Part shown: piece by piece, positions 1 through 59,237 of the stretch
How positions within the stretch are numbered: the stretch's first letter is position 1
How the letters are laid out: the number at the start of each line of letters is the position of its first letter
DNA from: an uncultured Clostridium sp.
GTDB lineage: Bacteria > Bacillota > Clostridia > Oscillospirales > CAG-272
DNA: 64,000 nt
Assembly: GCA_964629615.1 (NCBI GenBank)
Contig: CAZVUD010000001.1
Location: 89,795 to 153,794 of the forward strand
Direction: 5' to 3'
Program-made: the position numbers and the translations under genes
The notes under the pieces: generated by a model
The model's database searches: none
What the model was told of the DNA's origin: nothing
Seen by the model: the letters and a program-made list of their open reading frames with translations, nothing else

Positions 1-823
1 CAGGTATCCCAAGCGCGCGCAGCATAAGCGTAGCCGCACTTGCAAAATGTCTGCATACACCGCTTTCGTATTTACCGTCCATAAAAGCGATAGCAACATT
101 TTCTTCGCTGTCAAGAGCTGTATCGTATGCAAGGTCGTATCTTGCAAGCTTTTTGACATAATCCATTACGTCGTCAACAACTCCATGGTGGTTGCCCGAA
201 AATCCCAGTCTTGACAGCAGATCGGCAATATATGCCTCTGTATCGGGATCTATGTACGTATAGTTTTCCTGCACGAACATTTCGTAATCCTTCTTATATT
301 CCGCAAAGGTGGACATGAATGGGAAGACCTTATCCGTATCATCATAATCATATATAAGCACATCATACGCACCCGATGCATCTCCGATGCACTTGACATC
401 GCTCGTTTGCACCTGACCTGTATATGGGTCGGCGTAATACGGCAAGATAAATTTGTTTACTGTCGGCTCTATATGCACCTGATACAGCTCCATATCCGAT
501 CTTTCAAAGACAAAGCTCGGAAGATATGATGCCGAATACTTGTTTTTTAAAAGCTTGTCGTATTCTACAGCATTGCTTGACCAATTCTTTCCGTTGTAAT
601 CTCCAAAGCTCTGTGTCTTGAAGTATACATTGCCAAGATCATGATCACTGCTTATTTTATAAAGTACAAGGTCCTTACTGCTGTTCAGCTTTCCGTTATA
701 GTAGCTTTCTTCCGTGTCGCTCTCCTGTGCAAAAAGGAATATTATGCCAAGCATTGCGGCGGCTGTAAGCACTGTAACGGACAAAATTATGCAGATAAAG
801 CCCACGATTTTTGATCTTTTCAT
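1..823 (-). CDS. Transglutaminase-like (cysteine-protease fold) membrane protein, N-terminal ~274 aa; the C-terminus lies beyond the window start
   Basis: This frame is absent from the ORF track because it runs off the window. My translation from the ATG at 821-823 gives MKRSKIVGFICIILSVTVLTAAAMLGIIFLF (signal-anchor TM) and ends in DGKYESGVCRHFASAATLMLRALGIP. That ending matches the G-x-C-x-x-F-A...R-x-x-GIP transglutaminase-core motif. It lies 35 nt downstream of the preceding same-strand gene. Confidence 0.6.
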   Translation of the reverse strand, partial: MKRSKIVGFICIILSVTVLTAAAMLGIIFLFAQESDTEESYYNGKLNSSKDLVLYKISSDHDLGNVYFKTQSFGDYNGKNWSSNAVEYDKLLKNKYSASYLPSFVFERSDMELYQVHIEPTVNKFILPYYADPYTGQVQTSDVKCIGDASGAYDVLIYDYDDTDKVFPFMSTFAEYKKDYEMFVQENYTYIDPDTEAYIADLLSRLGFSGNHHGVVDDVMDYVKKLARYDLAYDTALDSEENVAIAFMDGKYESGVCRHFASAATLMLRALGIP

Positions 824-858: not shown

Positions 859-1945
859 TTACGTATTTCTGAGTATCCTTGATATATGCTCACGAGAAAG
901 CGGCATTGCATCCTCGCCGAACAATTCATCCATAAATGTGATGAGTCCGTCTGCGGAATTCTTTAAATATATGGGGTTTTGCGTTTCCAGCTTTCGTATT
1001 ACCTTCTTTGAAAGAATGTCGTCCAGAGCCTCAAGCTCATCTCCTCCACAGCTGATATATACCGGCACATATTCAAGTATCTGCTTCATTATTCTGTTTC
1101 CGAAGGTTATATGGAAATTCTCTTTCAGATATTCGTCAAGCTCCTTGAGCCTGTTTCGGTTTCTGCGGCTTATGCTGTAGCGGCGTATCGCATCATTTGT
1201 GAGATGCCTGAACTGCTCTGCCGATATTTTCAAGCCGCGGCTTTTTTCTGCTCTGAAGCTCTCTGCCTTGCTGTCAAGATCAAGTATCATTGCTCTGTCA
1301 TATACCTTATCGGATATGGCAAATGTAGAGTCGTCGTTGTTTGCCGTACCGATGAACCACATATTATCGGGCAATCTCATTCTGCCGTCCAAAAGTCCTA
1401 TCGGGTCATTTTCCCAGACATCCGACACGACATCTATATATCTTTCGTCGGGATCCGGCAATTCAAGCAAGGAAAGAAATTCGGCAAAGTAATATTCCAC
1501 TCTTGCTATATTCATTTCGTCAAGCACGGTAACATACATATCACCGCTGTAATTTGCCTCATACATCTTGCGAAGCAAGAGGGTCTCATTGAATTTTTTT
1601 GTGAATTCATTATAATATCCTACAAGGTCCGTGCGTTCCTTCCACATGGGCTGTACGGGTATTACGACAGACGGATTGTCTGTAAACAGACCGAATGCAT
1701 GTGCAAGCGAGGTCTTACCTGTTCCTGACATTCCCTGCAATATTATGAGCTTTGACACAGCCATACCCGATATAAATTTCCTTATATCCGACATTCTGTA
1801 ATACAGCCCGAGCCTTGATGCCGCAAAGCTCCTGAATTCTGTGCACAGCTCTTCAAGGCTACTGCATTCATCATATCTCTTATGTCCGTAATTCTCTTTG
1901 TTTCGGTCTATATTTGACAGCATGCAAAATCGCTCGCCGCTGTCT
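859..1945. repeat. Direct repeat copy A (1,087 bp), apparently 100% identical to 3972..5058
   Basis: I compared the boundary bases by eye: identity starts at 859/3972 and ends at 1945/5058, an offset of 3,113 bp. ORF-track translations in three different frames are identical between the copies (361 aa sense; 205-aa, 97-aa and 80-aa antisense ORFs). Confidence 0.9.
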
Positions 1946-2202
1946 TGATCCTGCAAGGACGGCGCATCGGGATCGTCCTTGCGCGGCACTTCCTTTTGCG
2001 GTCTTGCATAAAACATTGCAAACACAAGGCATATGAGCATTATCGGTATGAGCAGTAAGAGCACTATAAGGAACACCACCGTTCCCGAGCCAAGCAATCC
2101 CTGCCTGTCCGCCGCGCTCATTATCATGTAAGCCAATATTCCCTCCATGAGAAGTGCCAACACGGCAAGCAGTATTTTTTTTAAGGTCGTTTTTTTCTTC
2201 AT
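859..2202 (-). CDS. Membrane-anchored McrB-like AAA+ GTPase (paralog 1)
   Basis: 447-aa ORF. The N-terminus has two hydrophobic TM segments (ILLAVLALLMEGILAYMIM; VVFLIVLLLLIPIMLICLVFAMFY). The AAA+ core has Walker A ILQGMSGTGKTS, the block VTVLDEMNIARVEYYFAEFLSLLE, and FIGTANNDDSTF (N-x-x-D). These parallel the McrB DEINRAN..FGE and MNTADRS signatures. Residues 87-447 are identical to the paralog at 3972..5276. Confidence 0.65.
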   Translation of the reverse strand: MKKKTTLKKILLAVLALLMEGILAYMIMSAADRQGLLGSGTVVFLIVLLLLIPIMLICLVFAMFYARPQKEVPRKDDPDAPSLQDQDSGERFCMLSNIDRNKENYGHKRYDECSSLEELCTEFRSFAASRLGLYYRMSDIRKFISGMAVSKLIILQGMSGTGKTSLAHAFGLFTDNPSVVIPVQPMWKERTDLVGYYNEFTKKFNETLLLRKMYEANYSGDMYVTVLDEMNIARVEYYFAEFLSLLELPDPDERYIDVVSDVWENDPIGLLDGRMRLPDNMWFIGTANNDDSTFAISDKVYDRAMILDLDSKAESFRAEKSRGLKISAEQFRHLTNDAIRRYSISRRNRNRLKELDEYLKENFHITFGNRIMKQILEYVPVYISCGGDELEALDDILSKKVIRKLETQNPIYLKNSADGLITFMDELFGEDAMPLSREHISRILRNT

Positions 2203-2264
2203 ATTATCAACACCGCCGATATCTGTATTTTTTGCAGCTGTAAGCTATGTGCAAAAGTTGTAAC

Positions 2265-3947
2265 TCAGTCCTTATGCTTCAGATTGTCTATACTTAATAT
2301 ATCTCGTCTTATGCGCTTTTTGGTCTTTTTCCACTCTCTGCCGAAAAAGCGTTCAAACGCCGCAAATTCCGCTTCAAGCATCTTGAAGCTCTCCTCGTCA
2401 GTAAAGCTGTCATCATCAGGCATCTCGCCGTTTTTGTACATATAGGAATGTATCCTTGCGTCACAAAGGCGCTTTTGCTCGCAAAGGCTATCATATCTTT
2501 CATTCAGCTCCTTCATCTCTTCTTCCAGCTTTTCTTTTTCAGATATGATATATTGCACCTTTTCTTCATACATTTCCTTCATGCGATGCATGTTTTCCTT
2601 TGAAAGATCGCATTCCGAGGCATATCTGCTGATAGCCTCCTGCTTCTCGCTCTCCTTCTCGGCACATATCTCCGAAAGCCTGCCCTCATAAGACGCGCTT
2701 ATATTCTCCATTTCCTTTGCATGAGCCGCCTCTATATCTGACACGCGGGCATCAAACTCGCCTGCATCCTTCATAAGTGCTTTTATACGCTCTTGCAATA
2801 CAAGCTCGCCCTCCTTAAGTCTTACCATCTCATCTCTCATAGGCTCGACATCCGATGCCTTTTGAGAGAGCATATTTATAAGTCCCTCGGTTTCAAGAAC
2901 ATATTCCTCCGGGCTTACCCCCGAGCTTCCGATCTTGCGACGTATGGCTTCTATGCGCTCTTGTTTTTTTTGCTCCTCCGCTTGCCTGCGCGCATTCTCT
3001 TCCTTTTCATACGACAGCTTAAGCTGATCCTTTATTCCGAGCCCATACTCATACGCAAGGAAGGCAAGTGCAGATGTTATATGTGCAATATCAGCCTTAG
3101 CATCTTTGTCTGCAAGGGATATCTCTGTATTTTCATACCTGATGCTGTATCCGTCGCCGACATATGCGATGATATAATCATACAGAGCCACTGCCCCCTT
3201 GAAATTATTGTCCATACGCAGTATGTTGGTCTTTGTAACGGGCGGACGCAAAAGCGGCACCTTTGCCTGCATCTCCATAAGGGGCGTGGATATGAGAGAA
3301 TGTATCATCTTTTGTATAAGACCTATGCGGTCTATTATATCCTTGGCACCGCTGTGGGAGCACATATATTTGTCATACGGAATACTGTCTGAAAGATCAA
3401 ACGTATAGGACAGCACCCTGTTTTCTATCTTCACTCTGTCAGTGAATGTGAGCTTGCCGTCATATTTATTTACAGCATCAAGTATCTTATCATATCTGAC
3501 AGATACAAAATCGCGCAGATACACAAGAAGCATATATAAAAATCTGTTCTCATACACGGTATGATCGTTCGTGCGCTCAACGGAATAGAGCTTATCAGGC
3601 ATCATGTCGCCATTGTCTGTCTTGCGTGTAAAAAGATTGCTGTGGCGCTCAAGGTGCACGACAGACTCCTTGGACACAGACTTCACCTTTTCTATCGGCA
3701 ACACCTCACCATTTGAATGTATGAACTGTCTTTCCTCATGTATCGCTTTTTCTATAAAGACAAGCCCCTTTTCTATCTCACGCACCCACTCTTCATCTAT
3801 CTCGCATACACCGCGCGTAACGGTTATACCGCCATGCCCGTTATCAGACGCAGATATGGCTTTTTCAAGCTTTTCCGCTTCTCTGTTTTCTTTTATAAGC
3901 TCGCGACTCTCAAGGAGAGCGCGGTAGTATACACCATGCTGATTCAT
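2265..3947 (-). CDS. McrC-like (DUF2357-like N-terminal region) protein with long C-terminal coiled coil; no nuclease motif recognised
   Basis: 560-aa ORF sandwiched between the two McrB-like genes, with gaps of 24 and 62 nt. The blocks HTVYENRFLYMLLVYLRDF and NILRMDNNFKGAVALYDYI resemble the ENRF-containing N-terminal region of McrC/DUF2357 partners of McrB-type GTPases. Residues ~300-540 are an E/K/R-rich heptad-like sequence. I found no convincing PD-(D/E)xK motif. Confidence 0.45.
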   Translation of the reverse strand: MNQHGVYYRALLESRELIKENREAEKLEKAISASDNGHGGITVTRGVCEIDEEWVREIEKGLVFIEKAIHEERQFIHSNGEVLPIEKVKSVSKESVVHLERHSNLFTRKTDNGDMMPDKLYSVERTNDHTVYENRFLYMLLVYLRDFVSVRYDKILDAVNKYDGKLTFTDRVKIENRVLSYTFDLSDSIPYDKYMCSHSGAKDIIDRIGLIQKMIHSLISTPLMEMQAKVPLLRPPVTKTNILRMDNNFKGAVALYDYIIAYVGDGYSIRYENTEISLADKDAKADIAHITSALAFLAYEYGLGIKDQLKLSYEKEENARRQAEEQKKQERIEAIRRKIGSSGVSPEEYVLETEGLINMLSQKASDVEPMRDEMVRLKEGELVLQERIKALMKDAGEFDARVSDIEAAHAKEMENISASYEGRLSEICAEKESEKQEAISRYASECDLSKENMHRMKEMYEEKVQYIISEKEKLEEEMKELNERYDSLCEQKRLCDARIHSYMYKNGEMPDDDSFTDEESFKMLEAEFAAFERFFGREWKKTKKRIRRDILSIDNLKHKD

Positions 3948-3971
3948 AAGATCATTCCTTTAACTGCATTT

Positions 3972-5058
3972 TTACGTATTTCTGAGTATCCTTGATATAT
4001 GCTCACGAGAAAGCGGCATTGCATCCTCGCCGAACAATTCATCCATAAATGTGATGAGTCCGTCTGCGGAATTCTTTAAATATATGGGGTTTTGCGTTTC
4101 CAGCTTTCGTATTACCTTCTTTGAAAGAATGTCGTCCAGAGCCTCAAGCTCATCTCCTCCACAGCTGATATATACCGGCACATATTCAAGTATCTGCTTC
4201 ATTATTCTGTTTCCGAAGGTTATATGGAAATTCTCTTTCAGATATTCGTCAAGCTCCTTGAGCCTGTTTCGGTTTCTGCGGCTTATGCTGTAGCGGCGTA
4301 TCGCATCATTTGTGAGATGCCTGAACTGCTCTGCCGATATTTTCAAGCCGCGGCTTTTTTCTGCTCTGAAGCTCTCTGCCTTGCTGTCAAGATCAAGTAT
4401 CATTGCTCTGTCATATACCTTATCGGATATGGCAAATGTAGAGTCGTCGTTGTTTGCCGTACCGATGAACCACATATTATCGGGCAATCTCATTCTGCCG
4501 TCCAAAAGTCCTATCGGGTCATTTTCCCAGACATCCGACACGACATCTATATATCTTTCGTCGGGATCCGGCAATTCAAGCAAGGAAAGAAATTCGGCAA
4601 AGTAATATTCCACTCTTGCTATATTCATTTCGTCAAGCACGGTAACATACATATCACCGCTGTAATTTGCCTCATACATCTTGCGAAGCAAGAGGGTCTC
4701 ATTGAATTTTTTTGTGAATTCATTATAATATCCTACAAGGTCCGTGCGTTCCTTCCACATGGGCTGTACGGGTATTACGACAGACGGATTGTCTGTAAAC
4801 AGACCGAATGCATGTGCAAGCGAGGTCTTACCTGTTCCTGACATTCCCTGCAATATTATGAGCTTTGACACAGCCATACCCGATATAAATTTCCTTATAT
4901 CCGACATTCTGTAATACAGCCCGAGCCTTGATGCCGCAAAGCTCCTGAATTCTGTGCACAGCTCTTCAAGGCTACTGCATTCATCATATCTCTTATGTCC
5001 GTAATTCTCTTTGTTTCGGTCTATATTTGACAGCATGCAAAATCGCTCGCCGCTGTCT
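3972..5058. repeat. Direct repeat copy B (1,087 bp), apparently 100% identical to 859..1945
   Basis: See copy A. The flanks diverge immediately outside the repeat, at 3971 versus 858 and at 5059 versus 1946. Confidence 0.9.
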
Positions 5059-5276
5059 GTATTTTTTTCAGCCTCGTCCGACAAAGAGTCCTCATTCGAT
5101 ACGCAGGATCTCTCACCCTTTTTATCCGAAAATATCAAAGACACCGCTATTACGCCTATCAATGCAAGTATCACGAACACATATAAAATGATCGCGATCT
5201 CGGATGTGAGAAAGCTGACAAAGCTGTCTATATTTATATCTGAAAGCGCCATTGCGCCGCAAAATGATCCTGACAT
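3972..5276 (-). CDS. Membrane-anchored McrB-like AAA+ GTPase (paralog 2)
   Basis: 434-aa ORF. It has a single N-terminal TM (IAIILYVFVILALIGVIAVSLIF, followed by KKGER). Its AAA+ core is identical to paralog 1 (GMSGTGKTS, LDEMNIARVEYYFAEF, GTANNDDS). Only the first ~73 aa differ from paralog 1. Confidence 0.65.
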   Translation of the reverse strand: MSGSFCGAMALSDINIDSFVSFLTSEIAIILYVFVILALIGVIAVSLIFSDKKGERSCVSNEDSLSDEAEKNTDSGERFCMLSNIDRNKENYGHKRYDECSSLEELCTEFRSFAASRLGLYYRMSDIRKFISGMAVSKLIILQGMSGTGKTSLAHAFGLFTDNPSVVIPVQPMWKERTDLVGYYNEFTKKFNETLLLRKMYEANYSGDMYVTVLDEMNIARVEYYFAEFLSLLELPDPDERYIDVVSDVWENDPIGLLDGRMRLPDNMWFIGTANNDDSTFAISDKVYDRAMILDLDSKAESFRAEKSRGLKISAEQFRHLTNDAIRRYSISRRNRNRLKELDEYLKENFHITFGNRIMKQILEYVPVYISCGGDELEALDDILSKKVIRKLETQNPIYLKNSADGLITFMDELFGEDAMPLSREHISRILRNT

Positions 5277-5307
5277 TTCTAACTCCTATGTAAAAATTAA
5301 GAACTCT

Positions 5308-8300
5308 TTATCTGCAGATCGCCAAAAGCAGATCCTTGCAGGCGTACATGCCGTCTTCTCCGAATATGCCGACAAATACATCTGATATATTTTCTGTATG
5401 CGAGCTGTCATTTTTGCCCGATACAGTTATGGCAATGTATGGCAAAACTCTTGATGCAAGCGTCCTGTCAAGCGCGCCCGACGTATCCTCACCGCATGCA
5501 AGGCATACCGACGAATACTTTTCCATACCGACGCAAAGCTCATTTCCGAATTTCAGCAAGGCTGTGCGCTTTAAGTAGTCTTCCAATCTGTCTATCTTTT
5601 TGAATGCTTCCTCGGGCAAGGCACAGTCGCGCATGCAAGTCTCAAGCATATATTCCGCCTGAGCACAAGACAGCTGTATGTGCTCAGATGGCACACCGCC
5701 GCTCAAGGATTCCGCAAATGATATCTTAAGTAAGGGTGACGTGTATACAAGGCTGTCGGGCAAGTCCTTTACACGAACGCTCGGATCAAGGCAAAGCACC
5801 ATCCACATATTGTGAGGTATGTATATTTCCTCATCCCTGTATTTTTCGCCGCTTGCCTCAAATAGGCTCCTGCCCTCAGGATCTCTTGCATATCCCGCAA
5901 AGGAAATTATGCCGTCATCTATATGCTCGGTCCTGATCCCCGTAAATGATATCATATGTATTGCATTCTTATTGCTTTTCGCACGCTTTAACATATCTAT
6001 CACAGCACCGTCGCGCTCATCCTGTGAGAGCGCACCTGCGTCACATGTCCTGCCGTTCTTATCAAGGCAGAAATAATCGCACAAAAGCTGTGATATTCTT
6101 TCACTCTGGTGTCCCTCACCGCGCAAAATGATCATTTTTGAGGAAAAAAACGCCGATATCAGATCTGTAAGCATCTCGTGTGAGAGCTTTATACCCTTTG
6201 ATGCGGCAAATGAGGTCAGATCCTTCCTTACAGCATCTATATTAAGGCTCTTGTCTATCTCTCGCATGCAGTCATCATCGCTCTGCATATCGTCATCATC
6301 CTCGATGTCGCCATCTTCCGTATCATCCGAAAACAAGCTTTCGATCAATGGCTCACCTAATATTTTCGCATCTGCAAAGCCCTTTGCTTTTTCAGCGTCC
6401 ACAGCCTTTCTTTCAGCCTCAAGTGCCTTTTGCCTGTCAAAAAAGTCAAGGGCAAACATGCATATGGCGGCAATTGCAAGAATTACGGCTACGACAGTTA
6501 CAAGTGTAGTATCTGCCTGCGATAAAGACGCAAACACAAAGAGAACTATTGCCAGCAAGAGCGCACCTGCGCCAAACACTTTATTTCTTATCTCTTTTTT
6601 CATAGAATTACGAACTTCCTCCAATTTAAAATAATGGGAATCTATATTGCTCACATGTGCGAAATATTCACTTTCATCGCGCGTGTCAGGCAGTATGGAC
6701 ACGCCCGACATTACAGTAGTGCAGCTCATCTCACTAACCCGTGAGCACGGCAGGACAGAAATGGTATATTTGCCTGATTCCAAAAGAAATCTGCCGCTTT
6801 TCTCGTCGTAGACCTCGTCCGCCTTTATGTCTATCTCCACGCTCTTCTCTTCGCCTGTGCCAAGCTCGATGCGCGCATAGCCGCAAAGCACTCTCTTTGG
6901 TCGCATGACAGCAGAGCTGTGCGAGCTTATATACACAAATACAGAGTCGCACCCGTGCTTGCCGCTGTTTTTTACGCAAAATCTGACCTTGCCGTTTTCA
7001 AATGTCAAGCCCAAATATTTAAATTTTGAATATGTCATGCCTTCGCCGAATGCACAGCCGACAGGTATTCCCTCACGCTCGTAATATTTATAGCCTGTAA
7101 ATCTTCCGATCCTGAGTCCTGCCTCGCGCCTTAATTCCCCGATGCTCTTACCTCCGCTTACCGCATCTGAATGCATGGATGATACGACTCTGCCCGACGG
7201 GCATATATCTCCAAATATCACATCCACCGCCGCCAAAGCGCCTTCCTTTATATTCAGCGGTGCTAAGAGAAGTCCGCTATATCCGTCGGCAAAGCTTATA
7301 TCCGATGTACATCCGCATCCGAGCACTATCACCGTCTTATTTCTGTAAGGGCGAAGTGCGTCCGCAAGCACCTCCGCTCCTATCGGAAGCCTTTTCTTGC
7401 CGTGCTCATATATCGGAATATCGGAATCTGCAAACAAAATCACAACATCTGATGATGCGGCAAGCGATACCGCCTCTCTTATCATATCACGGTCTATAGT
7501 ATCGCCGTCAATCAAATAGCCCTGCCTGTATCCTGAATATTGTCCCTTGCTCTTTATCCTCTCGCAAGCGGCAGATATCAATCCAAAGTCCGAATCCGAC
7601 GCATATCCGCCTATGACGCACACTCTCTTGCGCTTTTTTGATATTGGCAGGATATCATTCTCGTTTTTTATAAGTGCTACAGACGCCGCAGACGCCCTGT
7701 ATGCAACATCCGACGCATCTATATCGCATCTTATATTTCTCTTGTGTCGCATATCTTTTATTGTAAGCAAAAGATCCAATACGCGGTCAAGCGCCGCATC
7801 AAGTTCGTCGCTTGAGATGACCAGCCCCTTTTCTTTTTCGCGCTCCAGCTGTCCGTGCGTTATCTTGCCGATCTCAAGATCGTGTGCAAGTGTGTTATAT
7901 CTCTCATATGCCCGCAGAAGCTCCTCGTACGATCCGCCAAAGCATATCTCACCTTTTCGTATGTATCCGACAGTATATCCTTCAGAAATGCCCGTGCGTA
8001 TGCTGTATCCGAGAGCCATGTCCTTATCGCCAGACACATGGCTTGCAAATGCATCATTCACCTTCTCATATTCATCCCCAACACTGTCCGCGCGGGTCAA
8101 TGTAAAGATACATCCTCCTGCCGTTGCGTCCGCATATGGCTTATAGATGAGGTCGAACATATCAGAAGCAGAGGGCTCGCTGTCCAGCCATTTAGATCCT
8201 TCACGTGACACGTCAAGTCCCATAAAGCCATATGGCATATTTGCCCTTTTTGCCTCAACAGCAAACACATGCACCAATGCTGCCGAAATGTATCCATCCT

Positions 8301-8610
8301 CTGACAGCGCATTATCATGCAGGGATATCTGCGGCTTTAAGACGGGAAGCATCACGATATCCACTCCGTCGCTGTCCATATCGCGCATAACTATATTTGA
8401 GACCTGCCGCGCAAGCTCATTATCACACGACATTGCAAGGCACGCAACGCTCGGAAAATGCAAGGAGCAATACTCTTCAAGCATTCCGAACTTTAATTTT
8501 GGTATTCCGTATGCTTCAAGCTCTCCGCTTGAAGCATACCCGATATCTGACAAAAGCTTCAGCTTTGTGGCTTGAGGCATGCTGTCAATTATATTTTTAT
8601 ATCTAAGCAT
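5308..8610 (-). CDS. Fusion protein: degenerate GH3-like glycosidase domains + Fn3-like domain + TM hairpin + degenerate McrB-like AAA module
   Basis: 1,100-aa ORF. Residues ~1-640 follow the GH3 (BglX-type) layout, including the C-terminal Fn3-like block (GEGMTYSKFKY...RVLCGYARIELGTGEEKSVEIDI). I cannot find the KHF and GFVxSDW nucleophile motifs; the aligned position reads LGYSIRTG. Two TM helices follow (GAGALLLAIVLFVFASL; LVTVVAVILAIAAICMFALDFF). The C-terminal ~330 aa are paralogous to the neighbouring AAA proteins (LTSFAASKG..KMIILRGEGHQSERIS versus FRSFAASRLG..KLIILQGMSGTGKTS; IPHNMWMVLCLD versus LPDNMWFIGTANND), with the Walker A/B and NxxD motifs lost. Confidence 0.6.
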   Translation of the reverse strand: MLRYKNIIDSMPQATKLKLLSDIGYASSGELEAYGIPKLKFGMLEEYCSLHFPSVACLAMSCDNELARQVSNIVMRDMDSDGVDIVMLPVLKPQISLHDNALSEDGYISAALVHVFAVEAKRANMPYGFMGLDVSREGSKWLDSEPSASDMFDLIYKPYADATAGGCIFTLTRADSVGDEYEKVNDAFASHVSGDKDMALGYSIRTGISEGYTVGYIRKGEICFGGSYEELLRAYERYNTLAHDLEIGKITHGQLEREKEKGLVISSDELDAALDRVLDLLLTIKDMRHKRNIRCDIDASDVAYRASAASVALIKNENDILPISKKRKRVCVIGGYASDSDFGLISAACERIKSKGQYSGYRQGYLIDGDTIDRDMIREAVSLAASSDVVILFADSDIPIYEHGKKRLPIGAEVLADALRPYRNKTVIVLGCGCTSDISFADGYSGLLLAPLNIKEGALAAVDVIFGDICPSGRVVSSMHSDAVSGGKSIGELRREAGLRIGRFTGYKYYEREGIPVGCAFGEGMTYSKFKYLGLTFENGKVRFCVKNSGKHGCDSVFVYISSHSSAVMRPKRVLCGYARIELGTGEEKSVEIDIKADEVYDEKSGRFLLESGKYTISVLPCSRVSEMSCTTVMSGVSILPDTRDESEYFAHVSNIDSHYFKLEEVRNSMKKEIRNKVFGAGALLLAIVLFVFASLSQADTTLVTVVAVILAIAAICMFALDFFDRQKALEAERKAVDAEKAKGFADAKILGEPLIESLFSDDTEDGDIEDDDDMQSDDDCMREIDKSLNIDAVRKDLTSFAASKGIKLSHEMLTDLISAFFSSKMIILRGEGHQSERISQLLCDYFCLDKNGRTCDAGALSQDERDGAVIDMLKRAKSNKNAIHMISFTGIRTEHIDDGIISFAGYARDPEGRSLFEASGEKYRDEEIYIPHNMWMVLCLDPSVRVKDLPDSLVYTSPLLKISFAESLSGGVPSEHIQLSCAQAEYMLETCMRDCALPEEAFKKIDRLEDYLKRTALLKFGNELCVGMEKYSSVCLACGEDTSGALDRTLASRVLPYIAITVSGKNDSSHTENISDVFVGIFGEDGMYACKDLLLAICR

Positions 8611-9946: not shown

Positions 9947-9978
9947 AAAACCGCTTAGGTATTCTCCTTCCCCTCAAG

Positions 9979-11475
9979 TTATGTCGCATTATTCAGATTG
10001 TAGCTGTCAAAGAACTCCATGAGCCTTTCGGACGTTATATTGCCCTCTTCCTTTGAAAGCTCCTCAAGCATGCGCTCTGCCGTTACTCTCGCAACATCAT
10101 CGGAAACGTCTACTCCGTAATCCTTCATATACTTCAATGCATTCTCTGTCATGACATCCAGCTTTTTCTCATCGCTCATGCCCTTCAGGTCATTGAGAGA
10201 ATCCGCAAGGTCGTCCATAAGCATCTGATATTCCGTGATATTTTTCTTAAGATCATCTATGACAGATGCCACTGCATTGAGTGTCATATTGCGCACTGTC
10301 TTTTCTATATGTCTCATTCTCGGGTTGTCGTCAAGTATATCGCATATCTTATCTATAAGCTCATTTTCGGATATGATCGCCATTATCTCCTCATAATTTC
10401 CGCTCTGCAAAATACCGCTCTCTGCCGCAAGAACATATATGCGCAAAAGAGTATCCGCATCTCTTACCACAGTCTTTGGCGTTGTGCTCGTGCAGGTATA
10501 AAGTATCTCAGACAGTAATGGCTCTATGACCTCATTTACACTTGGAAGGATGATGTCCATATACGGCTCACCAACAAGCCACTTCCCCGATGCTCCCGAC
10601 AACAAGTCAGCCGAGAGCGACTTTGCTGTCTCGCTCTTTTTTATCTTTTTGGGCAGAGCAAGCAAGTCATCCATTTGATACGGCTCTGCTTCACCTATAT
10701 TTTTTATGACATTTACGCCGGCTATGAGATCGGGAAGCGAATCGCGTGCGGCTCTTATCTCGCGCACGAGGGAAAATCTGTTGTCGTTTAGCGTAGATGA
10801 TGATACCATTCTGTAGGTTACATTGCCGCCCAAGCAATGAAGCATATCGGAGATGCCATCGCTTGAATATTTCTCTATCAAAAAGTCGATATCATCGCCT
10901 ATTTTAACGCTTCCGCTGATCACGGGGTTTTCCTTGACGGTACAGGACAGCTCGTGCGCACAGTTGAGCGTTCCCGTGATCGGTGACATTATAACGGATG
11001 AGAGTATGACACCAAATACAGCGCCTACGATAGCGCCAAGCACCTTTGAGTCGCGCATATACCACGCTGCAAGCTCACCTTCATGCTCGGATGCTCCGCC
11101 GAATTTTGACATCTTCTTTTTCAGTACGGCAGACAGAATTATGCTAAGGGTGGCATACACAAACGGCAAAACAAAAAGGAAGAGCACGGGCGTTATCGCC
11201 GCATCTATAAATGCCCACATGACATCCCCTATATTCGCAAGCTGCTTTTCAATTTCTACCATAAAGTCGGTATCTTCAAGAAGCTCATAGATAAGATCGG
11301 TTATGGCATTGGATGCCAAAAAGGATATAAGTGCCGTTATCAAAATGGCACATATAAGCTTTGCCGACCGTATCAACGAATCGTATATTCCGCGACTGTA
11401 TCCCCGACATGCCCCCACAAGGACACACATCAGGGTAAGGATCAGAACAAATGCGGAGATGAGGGTAATGGTCAT
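9979..11475 (-). CDS. CvpA-like membrane protein with large C-terminal helical domain (first gene of operon)
   Basis: 498-aa ORF with RBS AAGGAGGAG. The N-terminal ~150 aa (ISAFVLILTLMCVLVGACRGYSRGIYDSLIRSAKLICAILITALISFLA...) resemble the CvpA/colicin-V-production membrane family. The remainder is unassigned. Confidence 0.45.
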   Translation of the reverse strand: MTITLISAFVLILTLMCVLVGACRGYSRGIYDSLIRSAKLICAILITALISFLASNAITDLIYELLEDTDFMVEIEKQLANIGDVMWAFIDAAITPVLFLFVLPFVYATLSIILSAVLKKKMSKFGGASEHEGELAAWYMRDSKVLGAIVGAVFGVILSSVIMSPITGTLNCAHELSCTVKENPVISGSVKIGDDIDFLIEKYSSDGISDMLHCLGGNVTYRMVSSSTLNDNRFSLVREIRAARDSLPDLIAGVNVIKNIGEAEPYQMDDLLALPKKIKKSETAKSLSADLLSGASGKWLVGEPYMDIILPSVNEVIEPLLSEILYTCTSTTPKTVVRDADTLLRIYVLAAESGILQSGNYEEIMAIISENELIDKICDILDDNPRMRHIEKTVRNMTLNAVASVIDDLKKNITEYQMLMDDLADSLNDLKGMSDEKKLDVMTENALKYMKDYGVDVSDDVARVTAERMLEELSKEEGNITSERLMEFFDSYNLNNAT

Positions 11476-11548: not shown

Positions 11549-11577
11549 ATTATATCACATATTATTAATAAAGTAAA
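11549..11577 (-). promoter_or_regulatory. Candidate sigma-A promoter for the 11475->1 operon
   Basis: The minus strand reads TTTACT-17 nt-TGaTATAAT (extended -10), about 70 nt upstream of the 9979..11475 start codon. Confidence 0.45.
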
Positions 11578-11825: not shown

Positions 11826-13925
11826 ATGGATAGCATAATGTATTATATATGTATTCCGTTTGGAATACTTATGAAATGGTGCTGGCAGATAGTAGGCAAT
11901 TACGGTGTTGCCATAATACTCTTCACCCTTGCCACAAAGCTCGTGCTTCTCCCCTTCTCTGTATGGATACACAAAAACTCCATAAACATGATAAAGATAC
12001 AGCCTGCCGTTAATTTTCTGAAGGCTGATCACTACGGAGATATGGACACCTTCGCAGACGAGCAGTCAAAGCTCTTCAAAAAAGAAAAATATCACCCGAT
12101 GCTCTCCCTCATCCCCCTGCTCTTGCAGATACTTCTGCTTTTGGCAGTGGTGGAGATCATATACCACCCTCTGCAATATCTGTTTTCCATCGACACCGAA
12201 AGCATACGCGCTGTGGGTGCGCACATAGGCTCTGATCTTGCAAGCTCGTCATATCAGCTTGAGATAATTGAGGCGGTGAAAGCAGGTCTGATCACTAAGG
12301 ATACAGTTATTGGCGGCGTGTCACAGCAGGCTCTCACAGCGATAGTTGACAATTCCATTGCATTCAATGGCGACCTCTTTGGGCTCAATCTCTCGACAGT
12401 TCCCTCAAGCGTATGGGGAATATATATACTCATGCCCGTAATAGCAGGTCTTTCATCCCTTATAATGTGCATAACTCAGAACCTCTCGAACGTTATACAG
12501 CATGAGCAAGGTGCATTCAGCAAATACGGACTCACGGTAATATCCGTCGGAATATCCCTCTATCTCGGAATAGGTGTTCCCGCAGGTATTGCCATATATT
12601 GGACGGCAAGCAACATCTTCTCCATCATACAGATGTATATCCTCAATTTTGTGATAAACCCCAAAAAATATGTCGACTACGAGCAGCTTGAATTAAGCCG
12701 CAAGGCGCTTGCCGACATAGAAAAGCTTGAGGAGGGCAAAAAGAACGATCCCGATTACAAAAAGAACAAGGCGCGCGAAAAGAAGGACTACAAAAAATTC
12801 TTCTCCATAGTAAACAAGCACCTTGTGATATACTCCGAAAAGAGCGGATTTTATAAGTATTTTGAAGCTCTTATAGGTGAGCTTCTTAAGCGCTCCAACA
12901 TAACGGTCCATTACATCACCAACGACCCAAACGATATCATATTTGAAATAGCAAAGACCGAGCCTCGCATCAAGCCATACTACATCGGACTCAAAAAGAT
13001 GATACCGCTCATGATGAAGCTGGAAGCTGACATAGTTGTCATGACAACTCCAGATCTTGACAAGTTCTATATCAAGCGCTCCATAATGAAAAAGGATATA
13101 GAATACATCTATGTTCCCCACGATATGATGAGCATACACATGGGATTCCGTGAGGGCGCGCTTGACGCATTCGACACCATATTCTGCGCAGGTCCTCACG
13201 TTGAAGCTGAGGTAAGAACTACCGAAAAGGTATATTCTCTGCCCGAGAAGACCTGCTTCCATTTCGGCTATCCCTTTGCCGACAAGCTGATCGAGGCAGG
13301 AGAAAAGGAACGCCGTGAGCATGTAGAGCGGAGTGTTAAGGAAGTATTGATAGCTCCCTCGTGGCAGGAGGACAATCTTCTTGATTCCTGCATAGACACG
13401 CTCATAGCGCAATTGTATTGCGACAAGTATCACATAACCGTGCGTCCCCACCCCGAATATGTCAAGAGATATCCGAACCGCATGAATGCTATATGCGAAA
13501 AATATTCAAGCATGGTGGGAGAGAAGCTCACATTTGAGCTTGACTTCTCGGCAAACCGCTCTGTCTATTCATCCGATATACTTATCACGGACTGGTCGGG
13601 CATTGCGCTGGAATTTACCTTTGCGACAAAGCGTCCTGCACTCTATATAAACACAAAAATGAAGTGCATGAACGAAAATTGGGAGAAGATAGGCATCACC
13701 CCATGTGAGATATCGCTTCGCGATACCGTGGGAATATCTCTTGATATGGACAAGCTTTCAGAATGCAGAGAAGCACTTGAAAAGCTGCTGTCAAACGGTG
13801 AAGAATACGAAAAGATAATCACGGACACGCTTGCTTCTCACCTTTATAACATAGGCTGTGCCGCAGAGCACGGTTCTGAGTACATTCTCAATTCCCTTGT
13901 TGCCAAAAGGAAAGCAAACAAATAA
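11826..13925 (+). CDS. Fusion: YidC/Oxa1-family membrane insertase (N) + CDP-glycerol glycerophosphotransferase (TagB/TagF family) domain (C)
   Basis: 699-aa ORF. The N-terminal ~280 aa carry YidC hallmarks (GVAIILFTLATKLVLLPFSVWIHKNSINMIKIQP...IAIYWTASNIFSIIQ). The C-terminal ~400 aa carry TagF-family blocks (FHFGYPFADKL, VLIAPSWQEDN, VRPHPEY, SDILITDWSGIALEFTFATKRPALYIN). Confidence 0.7.
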   Translation: MDSIMYYICIPFGILMKWCWQIVGNYGVAIILFTLATKLVLLPFSVWIHKNSINMIKIQPAVNFLKADHYGDMDTFADEQSKLFKKEKYHPMLSLIPLLLQILLLLAVVEIIYHPLQYLFSIDTESIRAVGAHIGSDLASSSYQLEIIEAVKAGLITKDTVIGGVSQQALTAIVDNSIAFNGDLFGLNLSTVPSSVWGIYILMPVIAGLSSLIMCITQNLSNVIQHEQGAFSKYGLTVISVGISLYLGIGVPAGIAIYWTASNIFSIIQMYILNFVINPKKYVDYEQLELSRKALADIEKLEEGKKNDPDYKKNKAREKKDYKKFFSIVNKHLVIYSEKSGFYKYFEALIGELLKRSNITVHYITNDPNDIIFEIAKTEPRIKPYYIGLKKMIPLMMKLEADIVVMTTPDLDKFYIKRSIMKKDIEYIYVPHDMMSIHMGFREGALDAFDTIFCAGPHVEAEVRTTEKVYSLPEKTCFHFGYPFADKLIEAGEKERREHVERSVKEVLIAPSWQEDNLLDSCIDTLIAQLYCDKYHITVRPHPEYVKRYPNRMNAICEKYSSMVGEKLTFELDFSANRSVYSSDILITDWSGIALEFTFATKRPALYINTKMKCMNENWEKIGITPCEISLRDTVGISLDMDKLSECREALEKLLSNGEEYEKIITDTLASHLYNIGCAAEHGSEYILNSLVAKRKANK

Positions 13926-59161: not shown

Positions 59162-59237
59162 GACCCGCTAGCTCAGATGGTAGAGCACTTGACTTTTAAT
59201 CAAGGGGTCCGGAGTTCGAGTCTCCGGCGGGTCACCA
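59162..59237 (+). tRNA. tRNA-Lys (anticodon UUU), CCA encoded
   Basis: I folded the cloverleaf by eye. Acceptor GACCCGC/GCGGGTC, anticodon stem CTTGA/TCAAG with loop CTTTTAA, T-arm CGGAG-TTCGAGT-CTCCG, and a terminal CCA. Confidence 0.9.

Follow-up and report, generated by a model that had tools for sequence, protein, structure and literature searches.

How can two genes of one operon carry the same stretch of more than a thousand nucleotides when the sequences that adjoin it are unrelated? This question is raised by a locus near one end of a 64,000-nucleotide stretch of DNA from an uncultured Clostridium sp. (contig CAZVUD010000001.1, positions 89,795 to 153,794; hereafter the window), in which two ATPase genes, AAA-A and AAA-B, flank an McrC-like gene (Table 1). 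A first-pass annotation of the window had described a perfect 1,087-bp direct repeat here, with abruptly diverging flanks, and had ascribed it to either very recent duplication or ongoing gene conversion.

The repeat and the genes that carry it

Exact comparison bore out the repeat: positions 859..1945 and 3972..5058 are equal base for base at 1,087 of 1,087 positions, at an offset of 3,113, and the match gains zero further bases at either end. The 50-nt blocks beside both copies are 14-40% identical, which is the random level and agrees with the abrupt divergence of the flanks described earlier, and no other long repeat, direct or inverted, was found in the 64-kb window. A 1,087-bp exact match cannot have arisen by chance. 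The repeat begins precisely at the TAA stop codon of AAA-A and of AAA-B, and the coordinates of the open reading frames confirm the annotated extent of the shared protein core, residues 87-447 of one product and 74-434 of the other.

Table 1. Features of the repeat-bearing operon and its downstream neighbour, in window positions.
Feature	Position	Strand	Description
Downstream gene, cut by window end	1..823	-	N-terminal TM helix, then transglutaminase-like core
Repeat copy 1	859..1945	-	Encodes AAA-A residues 87-447 (McrB-type AAA+ core) and stop codon
AAA-A, 447 aa	859..2202	-	AAA_5 protein, two TM segments
A-type anchor, unique 5' part of AAA-A	1946..2202	-	Basic N-terminus, two TM helices, acidic linker
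McrC-like gene, 560 aa	2265..3947	-	DUF2357-like N-terminal region, helix of ~160 residues
Repeat copy 2	3972..5058	-	Encodes AAA-B residues 74-434 and stop codon
AAA-B, 434 aa	3972..5276	-	AAA_5 protein, one TM segment
B-type anchor, unique 5' part of AAA-B	5059..5276	-	Short acidic tail, one TM helix, linker
1,100-aa protein	5308..8610	-	GH3_C and Fn3-like domains (Pfam; GH3, glycoside hydrolase family 3), two-TM hairpin, C-terminal degenerate AAA domain
Three conserved membrane-protein genes, 205 + 240 + 498 aa	8614..11475	-	Same operon

The core had been called McrB-like, a label that both sequence and fold support: its best PDB sequence match is E. coli McrB (phmmer, E=2e-5), with the motifs GMSGTGKT, LDEMN and NNDD aligning with those of McrB, and its top fold match is again McrB (PDB 6hz4; Foldseek, E=4.6e-6). 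It scores 25.2 bits against Pfam AAA_5 (cut-off 22) and 23.8 bits against the NCBIfam McrB equivalog, and because the latter value lies far under the cut-off of 637, the core is, by profile score, a distant relative of McrB and not McrB itself.

Paralogous cores in related genomes

The window was compared at species level with 19 metagenome-assembled genomes (MAGs) of gut and rumen Clostridia that have both copies on one contig, giving 40 copies in all; every comparison genome is a MAG, and contig names, where telling, are those of short-read assemblers (SPAdes 'NODE_', MEGAHIT 'k141_'). The layout AAA-B (one helix) / McrC-like / AAA-A (two helices), with B upstream and A downstream, recurs in all 20 genomes. 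Hydropathy confirms the annotated contrast between two-TM and one-TM N-termini, calling two TM segments in the A anchor of 20 of 20 genomes and one in the B anchor of 19 of 20 (two overlapping segments are called in the remaining genome, L033). The window's A and B anchors have no mutual similarity. With a leave-one-out A-anchor HMM, A anchors score 19.7-79.6 bits, and B anchors reach only 6-23 bits with the full A-anchor HMM; with a leave-one-out B-anchor HMM, E<1e-5 is reached by the B anchor of 19 of the 20 genomes, and no A anchor exceeds 6.2 bits with the B-anchor HMM. By these profiles, the anchors are orthologous by type across genomes. Since gene order and anchor types are the same in all 20 genomes, the duplication is, on this comparison, older than the species splits.

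The first of the two origins proposed in the annotation is thereby refuted, as the layout occurs in 19 other genomes whose cores are 61-96% identical to one another in protein sequence. A duplication confined to this genome, and too young to have diverged, would in a single genome look just like this, with 1,087 bp free of differences and sharp edges, but the same layout is distributed across the whole core tree with anchors orthologous by type, the window's unique anchors are mutually dissimilar, and identical duplications would have had to arise independently more than 20 times. On the comparative and synonymous-site data, we rejected this origin as hardly credible.

The cores themselves group by genome: nucleotide identity is 93.9-100% within a genome, as against a median of 67% (range 59-90%) between genomes. 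For 40 of 40 copies the nearest neighbour is the paralogue from the same genome, and paralogues are sisters throughout the core tree. Six genome pairs yielded 109-296 'concerted' sites, at which the paralogues agree, and 0 'orthology' sites; even in the closest pair (L026/L033) the ratio is 109:0. The annotation had suggested checking copy number and divergence in relatives, and this check returned two near-identical cores per genome in 19 others; ongoing gene conversion, the second origin it had proposed, is strongly supported by the comparison of 20 genomes. Purifying selection on the protein, acting without recombination, would be consistent with a core that is very conserved (61-96% protein identity, vs 20-46% for neighbouring genes), but it cannot hold synonymous sites equal, and third codon positions are 84-100% identical within genomes vs 44% between them; nor does it accord with the lack of orthology-pattern sites. 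It was rejected on the synonymous-site data and retains next to no probability.

We consider it very probable, from these sequence comparisons, that the locus records long-lasting concerted evolution by homologous recombination, confined to the motor domain, between old paralogues. AAA-A and AAA-B are ancient copies on either side of the McrC-like gene, in an operon that uncultured gut Clostridia inherit vertically, and their anchors, two-helix in the downstream gene and one-helix in the upstream, evolve independently. Recombination between the direct copies, 3.1 kb apart, would repeatedly overwrite the ~1.1-kb motor part together with the stop codon, whether by non-reciprocal gene conversion, by unequal exchange followed by collapse, or by both, and each genome would end up with one ATPase motor in two membrane-anchor versions. 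The mechanism is presumably RecA-dependent conversion.

Homogenisation is not obligatory, since the paralogue cores of L072 are 6% divergent and AAA-A is absent from L016 and L048. Differences within genomes are almost all synonymous (58:3 in L072, 20:2 in L074), which indicates that L072 and L074 each have two genuine copies on which purifying selection acts. The other 18 genomes together show 47 differences: the central 671 nt contain none of them, and 42 are located within the outermost 10% at each end, a picture that short-read collapse of central differences would give as well. We therefore rejected this edge bias as proof of conversion: the limits of short-read phasing predict an equal pattern.

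A similar process has been described for tufA/tufB and other genes under 'long-lasting recurrent concerted evolution' (Wang & Chen 2018, PMC6053082; Paulsson et al. 2017, PMC5485169), in which RecA-type gene conversion keeps the duplicates almost alike inside each genome even where species have diverged deeply. In tufA/tufB experiments, conversion frequency falls towards the ends of the homology (PMC5485169), a trend that the edge bias seen here matches. Here too, homogenisation reaches synonymous sites and extends over deep divergence, but it takes in only the motor domain and stop codon, while the N-terminal anchors evolve as ordinary orthologues, and it involves direct repeats only 3.1 kb apart that flank a partner gene. 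Long-lasting concerted evolution is rare in prokaryotes, with 26 genes recorded among 682 species surveyed (PMC6053082), and the present AAA family, all of whose carriers found are uncultured, lies outside those 26.

Repeat copies, assemblies and deletions

Identical repeats may also be made by assemblers, from a single core copy or from differing copies written twice as one consensus. In a de Bruijn graph, the arrangement X-R-M-R-Y becomes a loop whose node R is reused by assemblers, and a chromosome X-R-Y accompanied by a circular R-M molecule gives an identical graph. The annotation's warning of assembly trouble proved apt: many MEGAHIT contigs stop at the repeat edges, the middle segment is often an orphan contig of ~2.1 kb, and a contig that consists of the repeat unit alone exists (Logan contig L076, 1,077 nt). 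Three independent sequencing runs yielded Logan contigs whose sequence is that of the window, or in the case of L076 close to it, and their ends fall on the repeat boundaries or 30 nt inside them. L076 starts at a boundary and shows 9 differences from the window, which implies that the two copies in that strain have these 9 changes in common.

Against an artefact stand the junctions themselves. Contig L075 (two samples) carries the junctions repeat end-to-middle and middle-to-anchor A-to-repeat start, and L001, which comes from another run, corresponds to window positions 3972..5649, ends exactly at the repeat boundary and carries the upstream flank-to-anchor B-to-repeat junctions. Because these junctions lie on independent contigs, both repeat contexts are real, and judged from the assembled sequences there are at least two copies per genome. 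In L072, L074 and L019, moreover, the copies differ and were assembled separately, with differences that are almost purely synonymous, which proves two chromosomal copies in relatives; and collapse can mask only ~1% divergence or less, compared with 33% between species. An artefact is thus quite improbable as the source of the twin cores. Assembly effects could account for the identity being exactly 100% and for some of the edge bias: the 1.1-kb repeat exceeds read length, so sparse central differences can merge into one consensus, while differences near the edges can be phased.

The annotation had also suggested a switch; in its programmed form, the 3.1-kb unit would be deleted or amplified and the McrC-like gene turned off or anchor usage changed. 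Four MAG contigs (L007, L012, L014 and L041) have the structure of the deletion product, with the B anchor, core and downstream gene and without the McrC-like gene or A anchor, and all four are nested among two-copy lineages. But such a deletion is irreversible and hence no switch, and an assembler that skips the loop yields the same contigs and leaves the ~2.1-kb middle as an orphan, as is common; for this reason, we did not count the four contigs as genuine deletions. Neither a recombinase nor an invertase gene is seen in the operon or, on the upstream side, in the genes scanned immediately past it, and the two-copy state is kept across the sampled tree. A switch is not supported by these data, and we regard it as highly improbable.

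A McrB-type operon with membrane anchors

The position of the McrC-like gene between the repeats (2265..3947) is as the annotation had it, and the gene is kept between the two AAA genes in relatives. Its identity is less firm: the label rests on one marginal Pfam match, to DUF2357, the McrC N-terminal domain (26.2 bits, cut-off 23.3, E=5.6e-6, residues 57-161). Sequence searches of the PDB returned no match, McrC included, and comparison of its AF2 model with PDB folds returned nothing below E=0.38 (Foldseek). No nuclease family (Pfam) or nuclease fold was matched, a degenerate fold in residues 128-300 being possible, and no PADLOC model matched the protein. In the C-terminal half, the AF2 model has a single long helix (residues 346-505).

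The degenerate AAA domain of the 1,100-aa protein is paralogous to the repeat core (BLASTP to AAA-A, E=3e-10); this third paralogue is not homogenised, and the Walker A motif is missing from the protein and all its orthologues. Relatives also have a GH3-like/pseudo-ATPase gene upstream of AAA-B, as well as transglutaminase-like genes at the position of the downstream gene (Transglut_core, E=4e-7), and the three membrane-protein genes, whose products have no Pfam match, keep their synteny in most loci that extend far enough to include them. These flanking membrane-protein, GH3-like and transglutaminase-like genes, common to the species, encode proteins only 20-46% identical to those of the window. 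From the sequence context, the operon is inherited vertically and does not belong to a mobile island. On the minus strand, the best promoter-like site lies at 11577..11549 and no terminator-like site was found between the operon genes, with promoter and terminator scan counts at shuffle level; an Rfam scan of the window found only a tRNA (59162..59234).

With E. coli McrBC (PDB 6hz4, 6ut6, 7vsr) the operon shares an AAA_5/McrB-type NTPase core with Walker A, Walker B and N-x-x-D motifs (NNDD on McrB's NTAD) and an adjoining gene with the marginal DUF2357 match. It differs in that the N-terminal DNA-binding domain is absent and replaced by TM anchors of 73-86 residues with acidic linkers; a PD-(D/E)xK nuclease was not detected in the McrC-like protein, whose C-terminus is filled by the ~160-residue helix; two ATPase genes, predicted to be of active type, are accompanied by a pseudo-ATPase; and the locus is syntenic and vertically inherited, not situated in a defence or mobile island.

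Another comparison is offered by the CoCoNuT / CoCoPALM branch (Bell et al. 2024, PMC11090510), which is defined by an NxD motif and has a McrC homologue with a long coiled-coil and no active nuclease; in CoCoPALMs the McrB homologue in addition bears a fused, TM-containing FtsB-like domain. The long helix and lack of a detected nuclease in the McrC-like protein, and the TM segments on the McrB homologue, are reminiscent of this branch. Unlike it, the window's core reads NxxD by ungapped alignment (NNDD on NTAD), although the string can also be read as NxD followed by D; the ATPase is without a coiled-coil, the long helix being present only in the McrC-like protein; the operon proteins include no HEPN or other nuclease and the operon no signal-peptidase or pilus genes; and no identical twin cores are described in PMC11090510. 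PcdA of Staphylococcus aureus, an AAA+ NTPase of the McrB family that was recruited away from restriction into a housekeeping role in the cell envelope or division (PMC10602043), offers by analogy a precedent for non-defence function in the family, but it has EVE domains and is without a membrane anchor, McrC-like partner or duplicated core. The AAA core also matches part of the PADLOC profile PDC-M26A (candidate system PDC-M26, protein A; E=4e-45), and a literature search found no paper mentioning PDC-M26.

The operon probably encodes an uncharacterised machine of McrB type that is associated with the envelope, and not a restriction system. We infer that both isoforms join the same McrB-type ring around the McrC-like partner, such that mismatched cores would be disfavoured. 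A stronger version, which we think unlikely, is that the twin cores are a selected design and not a by-product of proximity: anchor isoforms, perhaps with the GH3-fused pseudo-ATPase, would co-assemble in a membrane-tethered McrB-type ring around a nuclease-less, coiled-coil McrC-like protein, and conversion, much like alternative first exons, would keep the motor subunits interchangeable.

Concerted evolution in bacteria is well known as a process and rarely documented, and this case would add an uncultured clade; the sharp stop of homogenisation at a domain boundary would allow conversion and ordinary divergence to be compared within one gene. For metagenomics, such repeats fragment short-read assemblies and the McrC-like gene lands on ~2.1-kb orphan contigs, which, going by common binning length cut-offs, are presumably at risk of exclusion from genome bins; if the orphans are left unbinned, the gene content that MAGs give for this operon would be in systematic error and could pass for the result of deletions. 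With its McrB-type motor, two anchors, pseudo-ATPase and no detected nuclease, the operon is a candidate for a restriction-type ATPase co-opted for an envelope function, and should the twin cores prove to be a selected design, it would represent a new McrBC-derived machine associated with the envelope of uncultured gut Clostridia.

The repeat and its two chromosomal copies

The perfect direct repeat claimed in the first-pass annotation withstood direct comparison: its two copies agree at 1,087 of 1,087 positions, the next base on either side already differs, and identity in the flanks falls immediately to the random level. The 64-kb window contains no other long repeat, and its sole Rfam match is a single tRNA gene. 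All operon genes around the repeat lie on the minus strand, and in both AAA genes the TAA stop codon marks the precise start of the repeat, which encodes residues 87-447 in AAA-A and 74-434 in AAA-B (the core); the N-termini (the anchors) are unique, with two transmembrane segments in AAA-A and one in AAA-B.

Positions of the repeat, the operon genes and other features in the window
Feature	Position	Strand	Description
Transglutaminase-like gene	1..823	-	after AAA-A in transcription order; cut by window end
Repeat, copy in AAA-A	859..1945		1,087 bp
AAA-A	859..2202	-	447 aa; follows 560-aa gene
McrC-like gene	2265..3947	-	560 aa; between AAA-B and AAA-A
Repeat, copy in AAA-B	3972..5058		1,087 bp
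AAA-B	3972..5276	-	434 aa; follows 1,100-aa gene
1,100-aa protein	5308..8610	-	after 205-aa gene, before AAA-B in transcription order
Three membrane-protein genes		-	498, 240 and 205 aa in transcription order; before 1,100-aa gene
YidC-TagF fusion	11826..13925	+	one 699-aa ORF
tRNA gene	59162..59234	+	

In Logan, three independent assemblies made from public sequencing runs match this structure. One contig (L001, from SRR14160743) corresponds to 3972..5649, extending from the upstream gene across the B anchor and the complete repeat, and ends exactly at the repeat boundary. Another (L075, from two samples, SRR14160762 among them) corresponds to 1916..4001 and consists of the 2,026-bp middle segment flanked on both sides by exactly 30 nt of repeat, the overhang predicted for a k=31 graph with branch points at the two repeat edges. 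The third (L076, from SRR14160769), 1,077 nt long, contains nothing but the repeat unit, begins exactly at the repeat boundary and departs from the window sequence by 9 substitutions; such a stand-alone variant implies that both copies of a related strain carry the same nine changes. The same assembly graph would also arise from a chromosome with one repeat between the outer flanks, accompanied by a circular molecule of one repeat and the middle segment, but this point is settled by relatives whose two copies differ. In three of these, codon comparison found almost entirely synonymous differences: 58 synonymous and 3 non-synonymous in locus L072, 20 and 2 in L074, and 7 and 0 in L036, where all seven fall within the last 9 codons. 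The near-exclusively synonymous pattern excludes sequencing error as their source and proves that there are two chromosomal copies; the two genes are functional, under purifying selection, and have truly diverged at these residual sites.

Histories of the cores and anchors among relatives

A species-level scan, with one genome per species, recovered 73 loci, all from gut or rumen MAGs labelled Clostridia, Oscillospiraceae, Eubacteriales or Christensenellaceae. Both copies lie on one contig in 19 of them, and without exception B anchor-core comes first, then the McrC-like gene, then A anchor-core; at least 15 further contigs truncate the second copy at their end. The gene for the GH3-like/pseudo-AAA protein is found upstream in all 19 two-copy loci, and most of these loci also carry the upstream membrane-protein genes. 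Across these nineteen genomes and the window, core nucleotide identity, taken over the final 1,071 coding nucleotides, is 93.9-100% within a genome (exactly 100% in 8 of 20), and between genomes its median is 67%, with 44% at third codon positions and 61-96% in protein. For every one of the 40 copies the nearest neighbour is the paralogue in its own genome, and neighbour joining of 89 cores places paralogues together as sister pairs throughout the tree, its deepest branches included. The closest pair of species (L026 and L033) has 109 sites at which paralogues agree within each genome and differ between genomes, and none at which orthologues agree instead; five other genome pairs have 154-296 such concerted sites each, again with no orthologue-agreement sites.

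The anchors, judged by their sequences, evolve as ordinary orthologues. The A anchor is in the downstream position with two transmembrane helices in all 20 genomes, and the B anchor is upstream with one helix in 19 of 20 (the hydropathy scan of L033 gave two overlapping segments). Against leave-one-out HMMs of their own type, A anchors scored 19.7-79.6 bits and B anchors reached E<1e-5 in 19 of 20; across types, with full HMMs, the A-anchor model scored 6-23 bits on B anchors and the B-anchor model at most 6.2 bits on A anchors. Anchors that are orthologous by type, joined to cores that pair within genomes, indicate that the duplication predates the whole sampled clade and that the cores have been repeatedly homogenised. 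The very recent duplication first proposed for the window is thus contradicted by the shared gene order and orthologous anchors of nineteen other genomes, and the ongoing gene conversion offered beside it is borne out by the nearest-neighbour and site counts. Concerted evolution restricted to the motor domain is the best-supported reading, and is the same phenomenon as that known for tuf and a few other genes of long-lasting concerted evolution; a survey of 682 species lists 26 such genes in prokaryotes, none of them an AAA+ gene of this kind (PMC6053082).

Homogenisation would be driven by homologous recombination between the direct repeats, 3.1 kb apart, either through non-reciprocal conversion or through unequal exchange followed by collapse. 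The 18 genomes other than L072 and L074 carry 47 differences between copies, 42 of them in the outer tenth at either end and none in the central 671 nt; as the 1.1-kb repeat exceeds short-read length, edge differences can be phased and sparse central ones may be collapsed by the assembler, so that exact identity of the centre, including the 100% of the window, is an upper bound on similarity. Such collapse hides only divergence of about 1% or less, which leaves the main conclusion unaffected. The concentration of differences at the edges fits gene conversion, since the measured conversion frequency of tufA/tufB declines towards the ends of homology (PMC5485169). On the 3' side, similarity ends between -13 and +14 nt from the stop codon in 20 of 20 genomes, and its 5' limit varies within an acidic linker, giving repeat lengths of 1,080-1,212 nt. 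The two L072 cores (6645..7747 and 9974..11076 of that locus) show 6% nucleotide divergence, increasing towards the 3' end; in this lineage homogenisation appears to have lapsed or to be partial.

Contigs with a single AAA gene

Recombination that deletes the middle segment would take out the McrC-like gene together with the A anchor, and four MAG contigs have the corresponding layout: at about 10,000-11,100 in each of L007, L012, L014 and L041, the gene immediately after the B-anchored AAA gene is the downstream transglutaminase-like one, and neither a McrC-like gene nor AAA-A is present. These contigs are either products of recombination between repeats or cases in which the assembler skipped the loop; because skipping yields the same contig, and because orphan McrC-like contigs exist, the deletions cannot be called real. 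Such orphans, about 2.0-2.4 kb long and bearing only the McrC-like gene, number in the dozens in public short-read assemblies (L075 is an example) and arise because the flanking repeats isolate the middle segment. It is unlikely that the repeats serve as an on/off switch through deletion or amplification, as had been suggested from the window.

In L016 (11132..13305) and L048 (11091..13222), the McrC-like gene is followed directly by the downstream gene. No assembly shortcut can produce this structure, so some lineages truly lack the second AAA gene, and the two loci are a real one-AAA variant of the operon; the position of L016, nested among two-copy lineages, suggests a loss of AAA-A.

Operon proteins and their relation to McrBC

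The core is a McrB-type AAA+ domain: it matches Pfam AAA_5 above the cut-off and E. coli McrB by phmmer (E=2e-5), aligning with McrB at Walker A (GMSGTGKT), Walker B (LDEMN) and an NNDD that falls ungapped on the NTAD signature. The best PDB fold match of its AlphaFold2 model (pTM 0.82) is E. coli McrB (E=4.6e-6), followed by RavA and Thermococcus McrB. The 560-aa protein has a marginal DUF2357 match (residues 57-161) and, in its AlphaFold2 model, one helix across 346-505; family, PDB sequence and fold searches returned no nuclease family and no PDB match. Its residues 73-103, near-invariant in 42 homologues and modelled at pLDDT below 50, are a candidate 'finger' for partner binding and could insert into the ATPase ring. 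The 1,100-aa protein has GH3_C and Fn3-like domains, a hairpin of two transmembrane helices and, at its C-terminus, an AAA-like domain homologous to the core (E=3e-10). Walker A is missing from this domain and from all of about 40 orthologues, which makes it a conserved pseudo-ATPase; the positive-inside rule would place the GH3-like part of the protein in the cytoplasm.

Operon synteny is kept among species in which the flanking proteins share only 20-46% identity with their counterparts in the window, and the surroundings are envelope genes (transglutaminase-like surface proteins and a YidC-TagF fusion), which together argue against a mobile restriction system. The fusion, transcribed divergently from the operon, unusually joins a YidC/Oxa1 insertase (60KD_IMP) to a TagF-like CDP-glycerol glycerophosphotransferase domain. 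The system differs from McrBC in several defining features, lacking a DNA-binding domain, any detectable nuclease and a mobile context; from the CoCoNuT/CoCoPALM branch (PMC11090510) it differs in its ATPase, which by the ungapped alignment has NxxD in place of NxD and has no coiled-coil, and in the absence of HEPN or pilus genes. We therefore rejected membership in either. Even so, its working mode is probably that of a McrB-type ring with a McrC-type partner. McrBC hexamers plugged by McrC, and S. aureus, in which a McrB homologue has been co-opted for cell division (PMC10602043), serve as analogies from which we infer that it may form a membrane-tethered ring whose subunits bear two kinds of anchor.

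Our literature search found no paper on membrane-anchored twin McrB-like genes. In practice, the repeat affects MAG assembly: contigs only about 2.0-2.4 kb long presumably risk loss before binning, and MAGs of the clade would then often lack the McrC-like gene artefactually. The two genes present a clean, deep and domain-limited case of concerted evolution in an uncharacterised operon, one that points to an unexplored McrB-derived membrane machine.
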